DNA from: a virus
Taxonomy: Duplodnaviria; Heunggongvirae; Uroviricota; Caudoviricetes
Reading direction: 5' to 3' (one strand)
IMG/VR virus record: IMGVR_UViG_2703719368_000016
DNA length: 6,434 bases
Part shown: positions 3,397 through 6,337 of the stretch, piece after piece
How the letters are laid out: each line of letters begins with the position of its first letter
Position numbering within the stretch: position 1 is the first letter of the stretch
The notes under the pieces: generated by a model
Database searches by the model: none
What the model was told of the DNA's origin: nothing
The model's input: only the letters and a program-made list of their open reading frames with translations
Translations under genes and position numbers: made by a program

Positions 3397-3822
3397 TTAG
3401 TGCATCACCACAGCATTCCCTGCCGGGCCGCCGCGATTCATCTGGTCATACAAAACAACCGCTGACGCAACAAAATCATCGACATCCTTCACCAGCCGAT
3501 CCCTCCGTTCGACGATCTCACGGTAATATTCAGAACTGTGGCTGCGCATACGGGCCACCAGCAAAGGCGGCATCGCCTTTTCGATCGCCGGTAACAGAGC
3601 CTGCATTTTTTCAACAGCATCAGGGGTGTCTTTATCCAGCCAACGGAAAATTTTCTGGGTATTACGGGCCAGGGCTTCCGGATGGCTGTCGTCATACAGT
3701 TCCGGGAACGTCATTCCCAGCTCGAAATACGCTTTGGTAATTTTCGCAGCCGGTACTTTTTCGCCGTCCGGATGCGCCCAGACATTCATCGCCATGCGGA
3801 TGTGTTCATGCTTGATTTTCAT
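3397..3822 (-). CDS. ydaT: YdaT-like protein (reported CII-like regulator of Rac/CP-933P-type prophages), 141 aa
   Basis: Complete ORF, N-terminus MKIKHEHI..., C-terminus ...VVMH. Its ATG (3822-3820) overlaps the stop of the upstream Cro-like gene in an ATGA arrangement. Family assignment is from memory of YdaT and from gene order, not from a search. Confidence 0.6.
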   Translation of the reverse strand: MKIKHEHIRMAMNVWAHPDGEKVPAAKITKAYFELGMTFPELYDDSHPEALARNTQKIFRWLDKDTPDAVEKMQALLPAIEKAMPPLLVARMRSHSSEYYREIVERRDRLVKDVDDFVASAVVLYDQMNRGGPAGNAVVMH

Positions 3823-4121
3823 GAATCAACTCCATCAGATAAGCATGCACTACAATCACCTTCAGCATGAACTACATGTGTTTGCCCCAAACGAATGCCG
3901 CTCGCATACTCAGGCCAAATAAGCTCCCAATCATGGGGTCGTAGCTCCGCCCTACTTACTTGGCCTTCCGTCGCAGATTCGATCATAAGGGCGCGGGTTG
4001 GAGATATAGCTGTTCGTCCAGACGCCATTTGCGATAAGTAAGATGGCGATACACCAAGTCTGGCCGCGAATTTCTTAGCATCACCAACCCTTAATGATTT
4101 AATAAACTCTTTTAATGTCAT
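3819..4121 (-). CDS. ydaS: Cro-like HTH regulator of the YdaS family, 100 aa
   Basis: ATG at 4121-4119 with GAGGAAGG RBS (revcomp of 4123-4130). HTH segment AKKFAARLGVSPSYLSQMASGRTAISPTRAL followed by an ELRPhDW motif as I recall for YdaS. Divergent from the repressor gene across an operator-rich intergenic region. Confidence 0.65.
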   Translation of the reverse strand: MTLKEFIKSLRVGDAKKFAARLGVSPSYLSQMASGRTAISPTRALMIESATEGQVSRAELRPHDWELIWPEYASGIRLGQTHVVHAEGDCSACLSDGVDS

Positions 4122-4218
4122 ACCTTCCTCGGTTTAGTGTTTTTTTGCGAGTTTAGTGTTTAATAAACCATTAAGTCAAGTATTTGCTTGTTTAGTGATT
4201 ACTAAAGATAATTACCAC
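4122..4218. promoter_or_regulatory. Divergent promoter/operator region (OR-like): PR-like promoter for the cro-like operon, PRM-like promoter for the repressor, repeated operator motifs
   Basis: GTTTAGTG at 4132-4139, 4151-4158 and 4190-4197. Near-palindromes GTTTAATAAAC (4158-4168) and TTTAGTGATTACTAAA (4191-4206). Minus strand: TTGACT (plus 4174-4179), 18-nt spacer, TAAACT (plus 4150-4155). Plus strand: TTGCTT (4184-4189), 17-nt spacer, GATAAT (4207-4212), ending 6 nt before the repressor ATG. Confidence 0.55.
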
Positions 4219-4590
4219 ATGCAAAAAAAAGAAATTCGCCGTTTACGTCTCAAGGAGTGGTTTAAAGATAAAACTCTGCCACCCAAAGAGAAGAGCTACC
4301 TATCTCAACTAATGAGTGGGAGAGCCTCGTTTGGAGAAAAGGCTGCCAGAAGAATAGAGCAAACATACGGGATGCCGGAAGGGTATCTGGATGCGGAATA
4401 CGCAGAACAACCGGGGGGTTCTCCACCACATGCAGGGTTAACGTCTAATCAACTGGAATTATTGCAGATTTTTTCAGCCTTCCCTGAGGATGAGCAACGC
4501 CAGATAATCAGCGAGTTAAAGCAGAAAAAAGAATCAATGGAAGATCTCATAGCGAGATGGATTGCGGCGCAAAAATGCCGCCGCGCCTGA
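4219..4590 (+). CDS. paaR2: CI-like prophage repressor, short form (123 aa) with N-terminal HTH and no S24 peptidase domain; PaaR2-like
   Basis: The track ORF starts at GTG 4156 with no RBS; I prefer ATG 4219 (MQKKEIRRLRLKEWF...), which sits right after a -10-like GATAAT and so implies a leaderless mRNA. HTH: KEKSYLSQLMSGRASFGEKAARRIEQTYGMPEGYLD. The C-terminal part is too short for a LexA-type autocleavage domain. Symbol given from recalled architecture, unverified. Confidence 0.65.
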   Translation: MQKKEIRRLRLKEWFKDKTLPPKEKSYLSQLMSGRASFGEKAARRIEQTYGMPEGYLDAEYAEQPGGSPPHAGLTSNQLELLQIFSAFPEDEQRQIISELKQKKESMEDLIARWIAAQKCRRA

Positions 4591-4610
4591 GTTATAAAAC
4601 CGGAGGAAAC

Positions 4611-4802
4611 ATGAATAGAGCCCTTTCACCAATGGTTTCTGAATTTGAAACCATTGAACAAGAAAACAGTTACAACGAATGGCTGCGTGCGAAAGTAGCA
4701 ACGAGCCTTGCAGATCCGCGCCCAGCAATTCCCCATGACGAAGTTGAGCGCAGAATGGCAGAACGCTTTGCTAAGATGCGCAAGGAACGGAGCAAGCAGT
4801 AA
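4611..4802 (+). CDS. paaA2: Type II antitoxin, 63 aa, partner of the ParE-family toxin; PaaA2-like
   Basis: ATG 4611 with GGAGG RBS at 4602-4606 (the track's 4557 start would overlap the repressor gene and has no RBS). Product MNRALSPMVSEFETIEQENSYNEWLRAKVATSLADPRPAIPHDEVERRMAERFAKMRKERSKQ. Stop TAA 4800-4802 lies one nucleotide before the toxin ATG. Confidence 0.75.
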   Translation: MNRALSPMVSEFETIEQENSYNEWLRAKVATSLADPRPAIPHDEVERRMAERFAKMRKERSKQ

Positions 4803-4803
4803 A

Positions 4804-5082
4804 ATGTTACCCGTGTTATGGCTTGAAAGCGCAGATACCGACCTAGATGATATAACTAGTTATATTGCTCGTTTCGACATAGATGCGGCTGAACGCTTAT
4901 GGCAGCGATTAAGGGGTTGTGTGCTGCCGTTATCCGAACATCCGTATTTATACCCACCAAGCGACAGAGTACCTGGCTTGCGTGAGATTGTAGCCCACCC
5001 TAACTATATAATTCTATACCGCGTAACAACATCAAGCGTTGAAGTAGTAAACGTGATCCACGCAAGACGCCAGTTTCCCTAA
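4804..5082 (+). CDS. parE2: ParE/RelE-superfamily toxin, 92 aa; ParE2-like
   Basis: ATG 4804, in frame with track ORF 4708..5082 but placed immediately after the antitoxin stop. The C-terminus ...HPNYIILYRVTTSSVEVVNVIHARRQFP matches the conserved ParE/RelE motif (Y-R-I/V ... I-x-R-V/I-x-H-x-R-R). The small, tightly coupled antitoxin-then-toxin order is typical of type II TA operons. Confidence 0.8.
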   Translation: MLPVLWLESADTDLDDITSYIARFDIDAAERLWQRLRGCVLPLSEHPYLYPPSDRVPGLREIVAHPNYIILYRVTTSSVEVVNVIHARRQFP

Positions 5083-5100
5083 CTTTCACTACCAATAGAA

Positions 5101-5147
5101 ACATAACAACCGCAACGACTTTATCAAAAGCGTTGTGTTTGTTATGT
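5101..5147 (+). terminator. Long imperfect hairpin just after the toxin stop; possible terminator or insulator between the repressor-TA operon and the downstream promoter
   Basis: ACATAACAACCGCAACG (5101-5117) pairs with CGTTGTGTTTGTTATGT (5131-5147): a 17-position stem with one mismatch and one G-U, 13-nt loop. It is followed by cccgcgGTTTAGTTTTTA, U-rich but not a canonical adjacent U-tract. Confidence 0.35.
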
Positions 5148-5151
5148 CCCG

Positions 5152-5200
5152 CGGTTTAGTTTTTACTTGACTTAAGTTTAATGTTTATTAAACTAAAAAT
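5152..5200 (+). promoter_or_regulatory. Second operator/promoter copy (OL/PL-like, or PdicB-like) directing rightward transcription
   Basis: TTGACT (5167-5172), 16-nt spacer, TAAACT (5189-5194): the same hexamers as the PR-like promoter. Operator-like GTTTAGT at 5154-5160 and GTTTATTAAAC at 5183-5193, the latter the exact reverse complement of GTTTAATAAAC at 4158-4168. The block 5175-5194 matches 4150-4169 at 17 of 20 positions. Confidence 0.45.
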
Positions 5201-5489
5201 ACCAACCCACCCCGCCCCACAGAACGCAGGGAAATACTTCGAGTTACCCGGCAGTGGTCAGGGGTTAAGTAGCCAGCCCGAGGCGTATGAACATGACGGC
5301 AGGGTTCAACTTTAATAACTATGCAGCAGGTTTTTGTTCCGCTACCCCGGCGTTAAGGGGAAACAGAGGGTTTCTCAGTGGGCGAAGTCAAACATCAGAA
5401 TGGAAGGCATCCCGGGATCGGCAAAGAAGCAGCAATGGCGCTTTATATTGACATCAGCGCCATTGCAGGACAGGTAAGAGTTATCAGAG

Positions 5490-5565
5490 NNNNNNNNNNN
5501 NNNNNNNNNNNNNNNNNNNNNNNNNNNNNNNNNNNNNNNNNNNNNNNNNNNNNNNNNNNNNNNNN
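5490..5565. other. Run of 76 N (assembly gap or masked sequence)
   Basis: Literal n characters in the sequence. Any ORF crossing it is unreliable and true spacing is unknown. Confidence 0.99.
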
Positions 5566-5719: not shown

Positions 5720-5938
5720 ATGCAGAAACGAGAACCCGTCATCATCGCGCCAGACTATACCGATGATGAACTTTATGAGTGGATGCACCAGAAAATTAAT
5801 GCAGCGCAGGATCTGAAATGGGCCAATGAAGCCAGGGCTAAGCAGGCTGAAAATCTGTCCGCTCTGGAGCAGGATATCACCAATCTGGAAAAAGCAGCGG
5901 CATTAAGCATTGCCAGAATGATTACATACCCGCGTTAA
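5720..5938 (+). CDS. Small acidic, probably helical protein (72 aa); positionally like the small ORFs (ydfC-like) that precede dicF in Qin-type dicB operons
   Basis: ATG 5720 with AAGGAG RBS at 5708-5713. Product MQKREPVIIAPDYTDDELYEWMHQKINAAQDLKWANEARAKQAENLSALEQDITNLEKAAALSIARMITYPR. It lies between the PL-like promoter and the DicF-like RNA. The ydfC comparison rests on size and position only. Confidence 0.55.
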   Translation: MQKREPVIIAPDYTDDELYEWMHQKINAAQDLKWANEARAKQAENLSALEQDITNLEKAAALSIARMITYPR

Positions 5939-6279: not shown

Positions 6280-6337
6280 TTTCTGGTGACGTTTGGCGGT
6301 ATCAGTTTTACTCCGTGACTGCTCTGCCGCCCTTTTT
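6280..6337 (+). ncRNA. dicF: DicF-like small RNA with intrinsic terminator (the prophage sRNA known to repress ftsZ translation)
   Basis: The sequence TTTCTGGTGACGTTTGGCGGTATCAGTTTTACTCCGTGACTGCTCTGCCGCCCTTTTT matches my recollection of E. coli DicF. GGCGG (6295-6299) pairs with CCGCC (6327-6331), followed by a T5 run at 6333-6337. Context fits: downstream of a repressor-controlled rightward promoter and a small ORF. Ends are approximate. Confidence 0.55.

Follow-up and report, generated by a model that had tools for sequence, protein, structure and literature searches.

The analysed stretch of 6,434 nucleotides (the window) contains the regulatory region of a lambdoid prophage. On the minus strand, ydaT (3397-3822; PF06254, E 2.8e-10) encodes a CII-like activator, a function taken from the published accounts in PMC8630535 and PMC9986795, and ydaS (3819-4121; PF15943, E 3.3e-12, and HTH_3) encodes a Cro-like HTH regulator expressed from PR. 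On the plus strand, paaR2 (4219-4590) encodes a CI-like repressor with an N-terminal HTH and without the S24 peptidase domain, followed by paaA2 (4611-4802; PF21217) and parE2 (4804-5082; PF05016, ParE_toxin), a toxin-antitoxin cargo located after the repressor gene and before OL. Downstream of PL, the operon includes ydfC (5720-5938) and the DicF RNA (6281-6332, 76.7 bits); in the full locus, dicB and ydfD come next. A Pfam search with PaaR2 and YdfC returned no family. The PDB entries 7NKV and 8C3K are identical to residues 1-66 of PaaR2 and 8C3L to residues 1-57, the rest of the chains being tag.

Positions 3800-5480 of the window are 100% identical to many E. coli O157:H7 chromosomes, and the ORFs and Pfam domains place ydaT, ydaS, paaR2, paaA2 and parE2 in the same arrangement as in the published locus of CP-933P, a cryptic lambdoid prophage of E. 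coli O157:H7 (Jurenas et al. 2021, mBio; PMC8630535). Furthermore, all 15 of the primers of Jurenas et al. that were tested match the window exactly. By exact primer match, the published EMSA fragment (primers FL1/FL2) corresponds to 4122-4218, the PR/PRM reporter fragment to 4146-4219, the PL-gfp reporter fragment to 5083-5200 and the footprint fragment to 4080-4268. The PaaR2-YdaS-YdaT switch of this prophage and its promoters PR933P, PRM933P, PL933P and PRE933P were described in the same report and by Prolic-Kalinsek et al. 2023 (PMC9986795). The look-alike OR and OL modules are hence already known: they are the published, experimentally tested CP-933P immunity switch, and their detection is correct but not new.

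The paaR2-ydaS intergenic region is 97 bp long and holds the divergent PR and PRM, both overlapped by 18-bp repeats. PR933P (4150-4179, minus strand) consists of a -35 TTGACT (4179-4174), an 18-nt spacer and a -10 TAAACT (4155-4150), while PRM933P (4184-4212, plus strand) consists of a -35 TTGCTT (4184-4189), a 17-nt spacer and a -10 GATAAT (4207-4212). Four repeats, starting at 4132, 4151, 4170 and 4190, make up OR. IR3 (4151-4168, GTTTAGTGTTTAATAAAC) is an 18-bp operator lying across the PR spacer and -10 and including an 11-mer (4158-4168), and IR1 (4190-4207, GTTTAGTGATTACTAAAG) is an 18-bp operator with the inner palindrome TTAGTGATTACTAA, occupying the PRM spacer. IR2 (4170-4187) is a weak repeat across the two back-to-back -35 elements, placed here from the published equal spacing of the four repeats, and IR4 (4132-4149, GTTTAGTGTTTTTTTGCG), also placed by reconstruction, has a single conserved half-site and lies in the 5′ leader of ydaS. 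The window coordinates of IR1-IR4, like those of OL1-2 below, are reconstructed from the published text and the sequence. IR2 and IR4 were each reported to be without one half-site (PMC8630535). In the same report, the transcription starts of PR and PRM were mapped by 5′RACE, and the paaR2 mRNA was found to be leaderless, starting at the ATG (4219), by 5′RACE, N-terminal sequencing and mass spectrometry. DNase I footprinting gave a protected region of about 78 bp across both promoters for PaaR2 and two regions of 27 and 32 bp for YdaS, and gfp fusions to PR and PRM were repressed up to 45-fold, by PaaR2 as well as by YdaS (PMC8630535). The original prediction had proposed the fragment 4122-4218 for EMSA, which is the very fragment used by these authors; PaaR2 and YdaS were reported to bind and footprint the 97-bp intergenic region.

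About 1 kb away, PL933P (5167-5194, plus strand) has a -35 TTGACT (5167-5172), a 16-nt spacer and a -10 TAAACT (5189-5194). OL1 (5176-5193, GTTTAATGTTTATTAAAC) is an 18-bp operator across the PL spacer and -10, including the 11-mer at 5183-5193, while the right half of OL2 (5154-5171, GTTTAGTTTTTACTTGAC; family form gTTtaatttttaCTTgAC) overlaps the PL -35. The published description reports hexamers identical to those of PR933P and the operators OL1-3 (PMC8630535); a third OL repeat was sought 5′ of 5154 in the window and none was convincing, giving two OL repeats against the authors' three. The available text of PMC8630535 gives no transcription start for PL. Between the parE2 stop and OL, a long hairpin with 22-nt arms (5101-5147, plus strand; repeat I3) folds at -25.1 kcal/mol, with a z-score of -4.1. 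By analogy with lambda t-imm, it is likely to mark the end of the PRM operon transcript. In a PL-gfp fusion, PaaR2 as well as YdaS lowered expression about 100-fold (PMC8630535). That one repressor would shut two early promoters in the manner of lambda was part of the prediction, and it is borne out by the repression of PR and PL by PaaR2 in these published fusions.

A consensus promoter scan found both predicted early promoters (minus 4179-4150 and plus 5167-5194). The pattern TTGACT-N16-18-TAAACT has only these two matches in the window and 0 in 200 shuffles; PR and PL do share both hexamers. The 18-bp pattern GTTTA-N8-TAAAC is found at 4151-4168, 4190-4207 (one mismatch) and 5176-5193, i.e., 3 matches against 0.14 expected, a count reached by 0 of 200 shuffles. 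Nested within these 18-bp inverted repeats are two 11-mers, GTTTAATAAAC at 4158-4168 and, as reverse complement, GTTTATTAAAC at 5183-5193. Together with a one-mismatch copy inside ydaS (4097-4107), which belongs to a 21-nt inverted repeat whose other arm is 4155-4175, the 11-mer matches amount to 3 against 0.10 expected (3 attained by 0 of 200 shuffles). The ydaS copy was considered as an extra operator and rejected, as it is unconserved and lies outside the intergenic region that holds the published footprints. GTTTAGT begins at 4132, 4151, 4190 and 5154 and nowhere else in the 6.4 kb (4 against 0.66 expected, a count attained by 0 of 200 shuffles), hence three copies in OR, at spacings of 19 and 39 bp, and one in OL, as had been predicted. 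Promoters, palindromes and GTTTAGT repeats were thus all found where the prediction had placed them, in numbers unmatched in 200 shuffles.

These elements were compared across 28 related loci from more than 10 genera, comprising 27 cross-genus loci with a PaaR2 homologue and that of E. coli VL46; the arrangement of OR and OL hardly varies among them. An 18-bp repeat lies over PR in 25 of the 27 cross-genus loci; in one of the remaining two, L016, the pair is much further upstream, and the other, L029, has none. In 24 of those 25 loci a second repeat lies in the PRM spacer, 37-39 bp away, and both repeats are present in E. coli VL46. One or more further matches are found 3′ of the repressor gene in 23 of the 27 cross-genus loci; about 20 of the 27, as well as VL46, have what looks like an OL site overlapping a PL-like promoter. 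Three OL repeats at 24-bp spacing occur in two loci (L012 and L014). Overall, 98 repeat matches were counted in the relatives where shuffled sequence gives about 10, and nearly all of the matches lie in OR or OL. The operator alignment carries much information at GTTTAG and TAAACT but little in the centre and on the flanks, and the family consensus for PRM is TTGCTT-N17-CAaAAT. Read on the opposite strand, the CP-933P IR3, GTTTAGTGTTTAATAAAC, gives exactly GTTTATTAAACACTAAAC, the sequence found most often at the PR operator of the relatives. The flip yields three direct copies of GTTTAGTG and, as seen from the promoter, makes the strong and weak half-sites change places, an exchange that may retune the order in which PaaR2 and YdaS occupy the sites.

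On the protein side, the HTH motif KEKSYLSQL..G..SFGE.AARR.E is nearly invariant among PaaR2 homologues. The recognition helix SFGEKAARR and the outer GTTTAG...TAAAC of the operator are near-invariant from E. coli, Photorhabdus, Yersinia and Erwinia to Massilia and the fungal endosymbionts Mycoavidus and Glomeribacter, while the rest of the protein is 43-76% identical. It is tempting to suggest that PaaR2-type immunity modules form one very broad group of "frozen specificity", a proposal that we put forward tentatively and consider somewhat more likely to be wrong than right. If true, homoimmunity would extend across prophages of separate genera, in contrast to the classical lambdoid immunities, which diversify, and CP-933P, with its flipped PR operator, would be the odd one out. 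The toxin-antitoxin pair has a different distribution: paaA2-parE2 is found in 0 of the 27 cross-genus relatives and is present only in E. coli VL46, and it is a lineage-specific inserted cargo.

The limits of the exchangeable unit can be drawn from two phages, Tritos and vB_EcoS-666R9, for which blastn homology with the window stops at 3838 and restarts at 5200/5205. Inside these borders, Tritos and 666R9 carry a different cI/cro pair, whose OR and OL share an AGTACA-type motif of their own. The immunity cassette (about 3839-5200) thus spans ydaS, OR, paaR2, paaA2-parE2 and OL/PL, and heteroimmune phages swap it entire, PL/OL included, so that operators and repressor are inherited together.

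Three other explanations were considered. The original prediction had taken the 11-bp GTTTA(A/T)TAAAC itself as the site, one per promoter; in this reading, a repressor dimer would bind it. The two exact reverse-complement copies and the one-mismatch copy (3 against 0.10 expected) speak for it, as does the presence of GTTTAATAAAC in several relatives. Among the relatives, however, the 18-mer keeps its outer GTTTAG unchanged but the inner pentamer, needed to complete the 11-mer, takes several forms (GATTA, GGTTT, GTTAT, ATTCA, AATTT), and the ydaS copy shows no conservation. The PRM operator at 4190-4207 is without the 11-mer, yet it lies within the region reported as protected (PMC8630535). 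Moreover, relative to the -10 the 18-mers keep the same register at PR and PL, whereas the position of the 11-mer shifts by 7 bp, from within the spacer at PR to the -10 itself at PL. Its half-site centres, about 6 bp apart, are also too close for a conventional HTH dimer, from what is generally known of lambdoid repressors. An 11-bp operator is accordingly improbable; both palindromes exist as predicted, but their role as the operator unit is not supported. As judged from conservation, this unit is the 18-bp inverted repeat, with a half-site of about GTTTAGTAA, and GTTTAWTAAAC is merely a part of it. The conservation of TAAAC(T) is owed partly to its role as a -10 and is not creditable to the operator alone. 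Alternatively, PR and PL could resemble each other only because this AT-rich DNA underwent a recent local duplication or gene conversion, the second module being non-regulatory. A 12-nt sequence, TACTTGACTTAA (repeat I5), does occur exactly, in inverted orientation, in both modules, and CP-933P is a decaying cryptic prophage. However, the fragment 5083-5200 was reported to have promoter activity, which PaaR2 and YdaS brought down about 100-fold (PMC8630535), the OL/PL architecture is seen again 445-2293 bp 3′ of PaaR2 homologues from many genera, and the OL/PL module moves with the repressor when immunity cassettes are exchanged, which leaves this explanation a negligible chance.

The direct repeats raise the question of a second regulator, since the three GTTTAGTG copies, put forward in the prediction as possible sites of such a protein, and the GTTTAGT at 5154 could be YdaS or YdaT sites independent of the PaaR2 palindromes. 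All four GTTTAGT copies are on the same strand, the YdaS footprint was reported as two blocks of 27 and 32 bp, and the authors, who noted a "striking balance" of direct and inverted repeats, considered that either could be used (PMC8630535). For YdaT, this reading is excluded. Its motif, defined by footprinting and ITC (PMC9986795), has its sole exact match in the window at the YdaT box OM (3812-3829, TTGATTTTCATGAATCAA; TTGATT-N6-AATCAA), outside the modules considered here, and no other site with up to 2 mismatches was found in the window. Furthermore, YdaT is described in the literature as not binding the CP-933P paaR2-ydaS region, and PMC8630535 reports it to be without effect on PR, PRM or PL. 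The part of the prediction that concerns YdaS holds insofar as this protein does bind OR, with footprints overlapping that of PaaR2. However, in 20 of 21 distinct PR sites of the relatives the PR repeat carries its strong half-site the other way round than in CP-933P, so that this half-site faces the PRM repeat, and IR4 has no counterpart in the relatives despite their YdaS homologues (50-63% identity). The direct arrangement is thus unconserved while the inverted-repeat unit is conserved; because IR3 is flipped and IR4 is unconserved, the direct GTTTAGTG arrangement is specific to the CP-933P lineage. Independent direct-repeat sites appear unlikely, if a little less so than the 11-bp operator, and the three direct copies, as placed in the sequence, are half-sites of the 18-bp inverted repeats.

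We estimate at roughly 93% the probability that the whole explanation is the lambdoid switch of CP-933P (Sp12), in which PaaR2 and YdaS read 18-bp GTTTA-N8-TAAAC repeats in OR and OL. In the proposed mechanism, the CI-like PaaR2 and the Cro-like YdaS would both recognise these repeats. IR3, covering the PR spacer and -10, would control PR, the promoter of ydaS-ydaT, and IR1, filling the PRM spacer, would control PRM, the promoter of the leaderless paaR2-paaA2-parE2 operon, with the two presumed degenerate OR repeats between and beside them. Past the toxin-antitoxin cargo, about 1 kb off, OL would act through the repeat at 5176-5193 on the PL spacer and -10 and the one at 5154-5171 on the -35. 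The TAAAC half of the operator doubles as the -10 TAAACT, so PR and PL share hexamers by construction. At a low level, PaaR2 was reported to repress PR and PL and to stimulate PRM, and at a high level to shut PRM as well; YdaS was reported to occupy PRM first and PR at a higher concentration and to repress PL, and the locus to be bistable (PMC8630535). An HTH dimer of PaaR2 would read the two outer GTTTA(G) half-sites, and the octamer reported for PaaR2 in solution (PMC8630535) may loop OR to OL, as does lambda CI. PL, in turn, probably drives the ydfC-DicF-dicB division-inhibitor operon.

The identical PR and PL hexamers, the 18-bp inverted repeats with the half-site GTTTAGTAA and OL1-3 are already in print (PMC8630535). 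A reader of the sequence alone thus recovered a published and verified architecture, down to the EMSA fragment of the authors, and the value of the exercise is one of calibration. What is added here, modestly, is that the 18-bp repeat is kept across genera, that the PR operator is flipped, that paaA2-parE2 is inserted cargo and where the immunity cassette ends on either side; these additions touch the point that the authors had left open, namely which type of repeat is the true operator. The control that this switch exerts, in an important pathogen, over a ParE-type toxin-antitoxin pair and, via PL, over the division inhibitors DicF and DicB has also been described before.

As in phage lambda, the locus has divergent repressor and cro-like genes with operators, a cluster of operators at PL and an exchangeable immunity cassette. 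The likeness extends to the overlapping operators of the divergent PR and PRM, the second cluster over PL beyond the repressor operon, the leaderless repressor mRNA, the activation of PRM by low doses of repressor and the octameric repressor. Both systems also co-transcribe a cargo with the repressor (rexAB in lambda, paaA2-parE2 in CP-933P) and possess a Cro analogue that fills the sites in the opposite order. However, PaaR2 has no sequence relationship to CI detectable by Pfam and no S24 autocleavage domain; with no Pfam match and no peptidase motif, it does not belong to the lambda CI/LexA-like S24 family. Hence PaaR2 acts like CI but lies outside that protein family. Because it lacks the autocleavage domain, PaaR2 is not SOS-inducible, and it is reported to be without a peptidase motif and unresponsive to mitomycin C (PMC8630535). 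Other differences from lambda are the four repeats at a spacing of about 19-20 bp against three 17-bp operators, the operator half-site that doubles as a -10 hexamer, the CII analogue, which is an unrelated POU-like protein, and PL, which would drive ydfC-DicF-dicB instead of N.

The Rac prophage of E. coli K-12 (RacR-YdaS-YdaT; PMC5700373, PMC5700377, PMC11879457) shares with CP-933P the gene order, the PF15943 YdaS and PF06254 YdaT domains and a near-identical YdaT box where ydaS and ydaT meet; YdaT of the one prophage also cross-reacts with that of the other. However, identity between CP-933P and Rac is reported to be only 26% for YdaS and 31% for YdaT (PMC8630535), and Rac has no toxin-antitoxin cargo. 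The Rac YdaT also binds the racR-ydaS intergenic region while that of CP-933P does not bind at paaR2-ydaS; the YdaS/YdaT domains and the YdaT box of the Rac type are thus present, and YdaT operators in the repressor-ydaS intergenic region are not.

With the dicA-dicC/dicB region of Qin (ydfABC-dicF-dicB-ydfD), CP-933P shares ydfC, DicF, then dicB and ydfD, downstream of PL. DicA of Qin keeps division inhibitors silent. The content of the CP-933P PL operon (ydfC, DicF, dicB, ydfD) therefore suggests that its repressor silences division inhibitors in a DicA-like manner. On PaaR2 and DicA, the cited paper goes no further than the shared position and an HHpred-predicted HTH.

The window is the immunity region of CP-933P (Sp12), a cryptic prophage of E. 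coli O157:H7, as established by the 100% identity of 3800-5480 with many O157:H7 chromosomes, by the gene set and by matches to PDB 7NKV, 8C3K and 8C3L, which are the N-terminal domain of PaaR2 itself. The minus strand carries ydaT (3397-3822) and ydaS (3819-4121), while the plus strand carries paaR2 (4219-4590), encoding the CI-like repressor, followed by paaA2 (4611-4802) and parE2 (4804-5082). Downstream of the promoter PL, which lies beyond parE2, the plus strand contains ydfC (5720-5938) and the full-length DicF antisense sRNA (6281-6332; Rfam RF00039, 76.7 bits), after which dicB and ydfD come next in the full locus. A run of 76 N masks 5490-5565; complete genomes place the masked part at, or immediately ahead of, the 3′ end of a minus-strand gene encoding a putative zinc-binding protein of the ECs_2282 family (5714-5914 in L001). 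In two O157 genomes, the 3800-5480 region is broken by an IS1203 insertion.

Exactly this DNA was studied by Jurenas et al. (2021, mBio; PMC8630535). In that paper, PR933P and PRM933P are predicted in the 97-bp paaR2-ydaS intergenic region (OR), their starts are confirmed by 5′RACE and a leaderless paaR2 mRNA is demonstrated. PaaR2 and YdaS both bound this region in EMSA; in DNase I footprinting, PaaR2 protected ~78 bp and YdaS 27 + 32 bp. The authors also sought a PL/OL analogue, named PL933P, whose gfp fusion was repressed ~100-fold by PaaR2 and likewise by YdaS. The primers given match the window exactly and define the EMSA (4122-4218), PR/PRM reporter (4146-4219), PL reporter (5083-5200) and footprint (4080-4268) fragments. 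The EMSA fragment is the one suggested in the original prediction, and the only plus-strand promoter-like site that a consensus scan finds in the PL reporter fragment is the predicted one (5167-5194), PL933P. Hence the prediction was correct but already known, and the locus is the published CP-933P switch itself. The proposed lambda-style control of divergent early promoters by one repressor is borne out by the reported repression of PR, PRM and PL by both PaaR2 and YdaS, and most of the binding, reporter and 5′RACE checks that had been suggested are in print for this DNA.

The two promoter-like sites with common hexamers were recovered by the consensus scan where they had been placed, with the PR-like site TTGACT(4179-4174)-18-TAAACT(4155-4150) on the minus strand and the PL-like site TTGACT(5167-5172)-16-TAAACT(5189-5194) on the plus strand. 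They are the only matches to TTGACT-N16-18-TAAACT in the window, and 200 dinucleotide-preserving shuffles produced none. The 11-bp near-palindromes GTTTA(A/T)TAAAC are also present, GTTTAATAAAC (4158-4168) being the reverse complement of GTTTATTAAAC (5183-5193); counting a one-mismatch copy at 4097-4107, there are three matches versus 0.10 expected. GTTTAGT occurs at 4132, 4151, 4190 and 5154 and nowhere else in the window (four copies versus 0.66 expected, a count reached in 0/200 shuffles), and the direct repeats are indeed spaced 19 and 39 bp apart. The repeat units are thus present, but they are longer than claimed: the repeat finder delimits GTTTA-N8-TAAAC 18-mers at 4151-4168, 4190-4207 (one mismatch) and 5176-5193 (three versus 0.14 expected). 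The published inverted repeats IR3 and IR1, which overlap PR and PRM, respectively, in PMC8630535, correspond to the first two; the IR and OL coordinates used here are reconstructions and not the authors' own, and the window holds two convincing OL repeats versus the three counted there. A 21-nt inverted repeat with 86% complementarity also pairs 4090-4110 (ydaS codons 4-10, with ATTTAATAAAC) with the PR operator region (4155-4175), but is probably fortuitous because it is not conserved among relatives.

As PMC8630535 leaves the precise binding sequences open, relatives were compared. A PaaR2 scan of species-representative genomes gave 27 loci (43-76% amino-acid identity) from Photorhabdus, Xenorhabdus, Yersinia, Erwinia, Enterobacter, Raoultella, Morganella, Arsenophonus, Winslowiella, Massilia, Mycoavidus, Glomeribacter and others, to which the diverged E. 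coli relative VL46 (73% nucleotide identity) was added. Conservation is striking just ahead of the repressor gene: an 18-bp repeat overlies a minus-strand TTGACn-16/18-TAAACT promoter in 25 of the 27 loci (L029 has none), and in 24 of the 25 another repeat, 37-39 bp off, fills the spacer between the hexamers of a TTGCTT-17-CAaAAT promoter. Downstream of the repressor gene, 23/27 loci have one or more additional matches, at 445 to 2293 bp. An OL-like site is found in ~20 of the 27 and in VL46, typically with one repeat on a plus-strand -10 TAAACT and the other, gTTtaatttttaCTTgAC, on the -35. With up to three mismatches, GTTTAGTNNNNACTAAAC has 98 matches in these loci versus ~10 in shuffles, almost all within OR or OL. 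In seven loci (L020, L022, L024, L027-L030), only the HTH domain, the N-terminal ~58-64 residues, aligns with PaaR2 (61-76% identity) and is followed by a different C-terminal part, which indicates that the DNA-binding domain and operators are joined to different oligomerisation/sensor domains. In the Photorhabdus and Xenorhabdus loci L004-L010, L016 and L017, the repressor gene is not leaderless, as an insert of ~50-300 bp separates the ATG from the PRM-like promoter, with tandem repeats (AGTGTTATGTGT...) in L010 and L016; the translation mode therefore varies within the family.

The original prediction took the 11-mer as the operator. Among relatives, the outer GTTTAG and TAAAC(T) have a high information content, the central positions and flanks a low one, and the inner pentamer that completes the 11-mer varies (GATTA, GGTTT, GTTAT, ATTCA). 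At both PR and PL, the 18-mers share the same register with the -10, their last five bases being the first five of TAAACT, whereas the 11-mers shift by 7 bp from one promoter to the other and are absent from the PRM operator. The near-invariant repressor HTH (KEKSYLSQL..G..SFGE.AARR.E) matches the invariant half-site. From these sequence comparisons we conclude that the operator unit is the 18-bp inverted repeat, of which the 11-mer is only a part.

The direct repeats had been proposed as sites for a second regulator, YdaS or YdaT. On the repressor-gene strand, the PR repeat of the largest group of relatives is GTTTATTAAACACTAAAC, and that of CP-933P (4151-4168) is its exact reverse complement, GTTTAGTGTTTAATAAAC, alone among 21 distinct PR sites; this flip may result from inversion or from conversion from an OL-type copy. 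Together with a degenerate, lineage-specific repeat (4132-4149) without counterpart in relatives, it accounts for the same-strand GTTTAGTG run. The direct arrangement is hence not conserved although YdaS homologues (50-63% identity) persist in most relatives, which argues against a regulator dependent on direct repeats. YdaS does act there, with footprints that overlap those of PaaR2. YdaT is excluded: its site, TTGATT-N6-AATCAA (PMC9986795), occurs once in the window, at the ydaS/ydaT junction (3812-3829), PR, PRM and PL are described as unaffected by it (PMC8630535) and the paaR2-ydaS region was reported not to be bound (PMC11879457).

Independent support for the lambda reading comes from the heteroimmune phages Tritos and vB_EcoS-666R9, whose match to the window (86-97% identity) stops at 3838 and resumes at 5200/5205. 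The segment in between holds a different cI/cro pair, and their OR and OL have a common AGTACA-type motif, unlike that of the window. The exchangeable cassette thus begins at the 3′ end of ydaS and ends just beyond the PL -10, and OL/PL is inherited with its own repressor. In PMC8630535, the toxin-antitoxin pair was suggested to be inserted into the immunity region, which is supported by the absence of paaA2-parE2 from all 27 cross-genus relatives and by the location of OL within ~80-130 bp after the repressor gene in several of them. Between the parE2 stop and OL, a plus-strand hairpin with 22-nt arms (5101-5147; -25.1 kcal/mol, z-score -4.1), with no canonical T-run directly after the stem, may be a terminator of the paaR2-paaA2-parE2 (PRM) transcript, like lambda t-imm. 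At the equivalent place in VL46 (L002 ~3876-3900), T's follow a classical GC hairpin. Heteroimmune phages (Tritos, vB_EcoS-666R9 and ~8 others; 2402-2560 in L031 and 2398-2552 in L032) share the first ~160 nt of the presumed PL transcript (5200-5363) at 88-97% identity. This conserved leader begins almost precisely where PL transcription is expected to start and is possibly a nut-like or processing element.

In the published work, low doses of PaaR2 raise PRM and lower PR and PL, YdaS fills PRM earlier than PR and the locus is bistable. The 18-bp repeats would be recognised by dimers through their outer half-sites, and PaaR2 octamers may bring OR and OL together in a loop. The operator half TAAAC would also serve as the -10, which would explain why PR and PL share hexamers. 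What is still new is comparative, namely the cross-genus invariance of operator and HTH, the flip of the PR operator and the limits of the cassette. The CP-933P locus works like lambda OR/OL, and its OL/PL travels with the repressor as in lambda imm regions. However, PaaR2, which has no Pfam match and, according to PMC8630535, no autocleavage motif, falls outside the CI/LexA S24 family.
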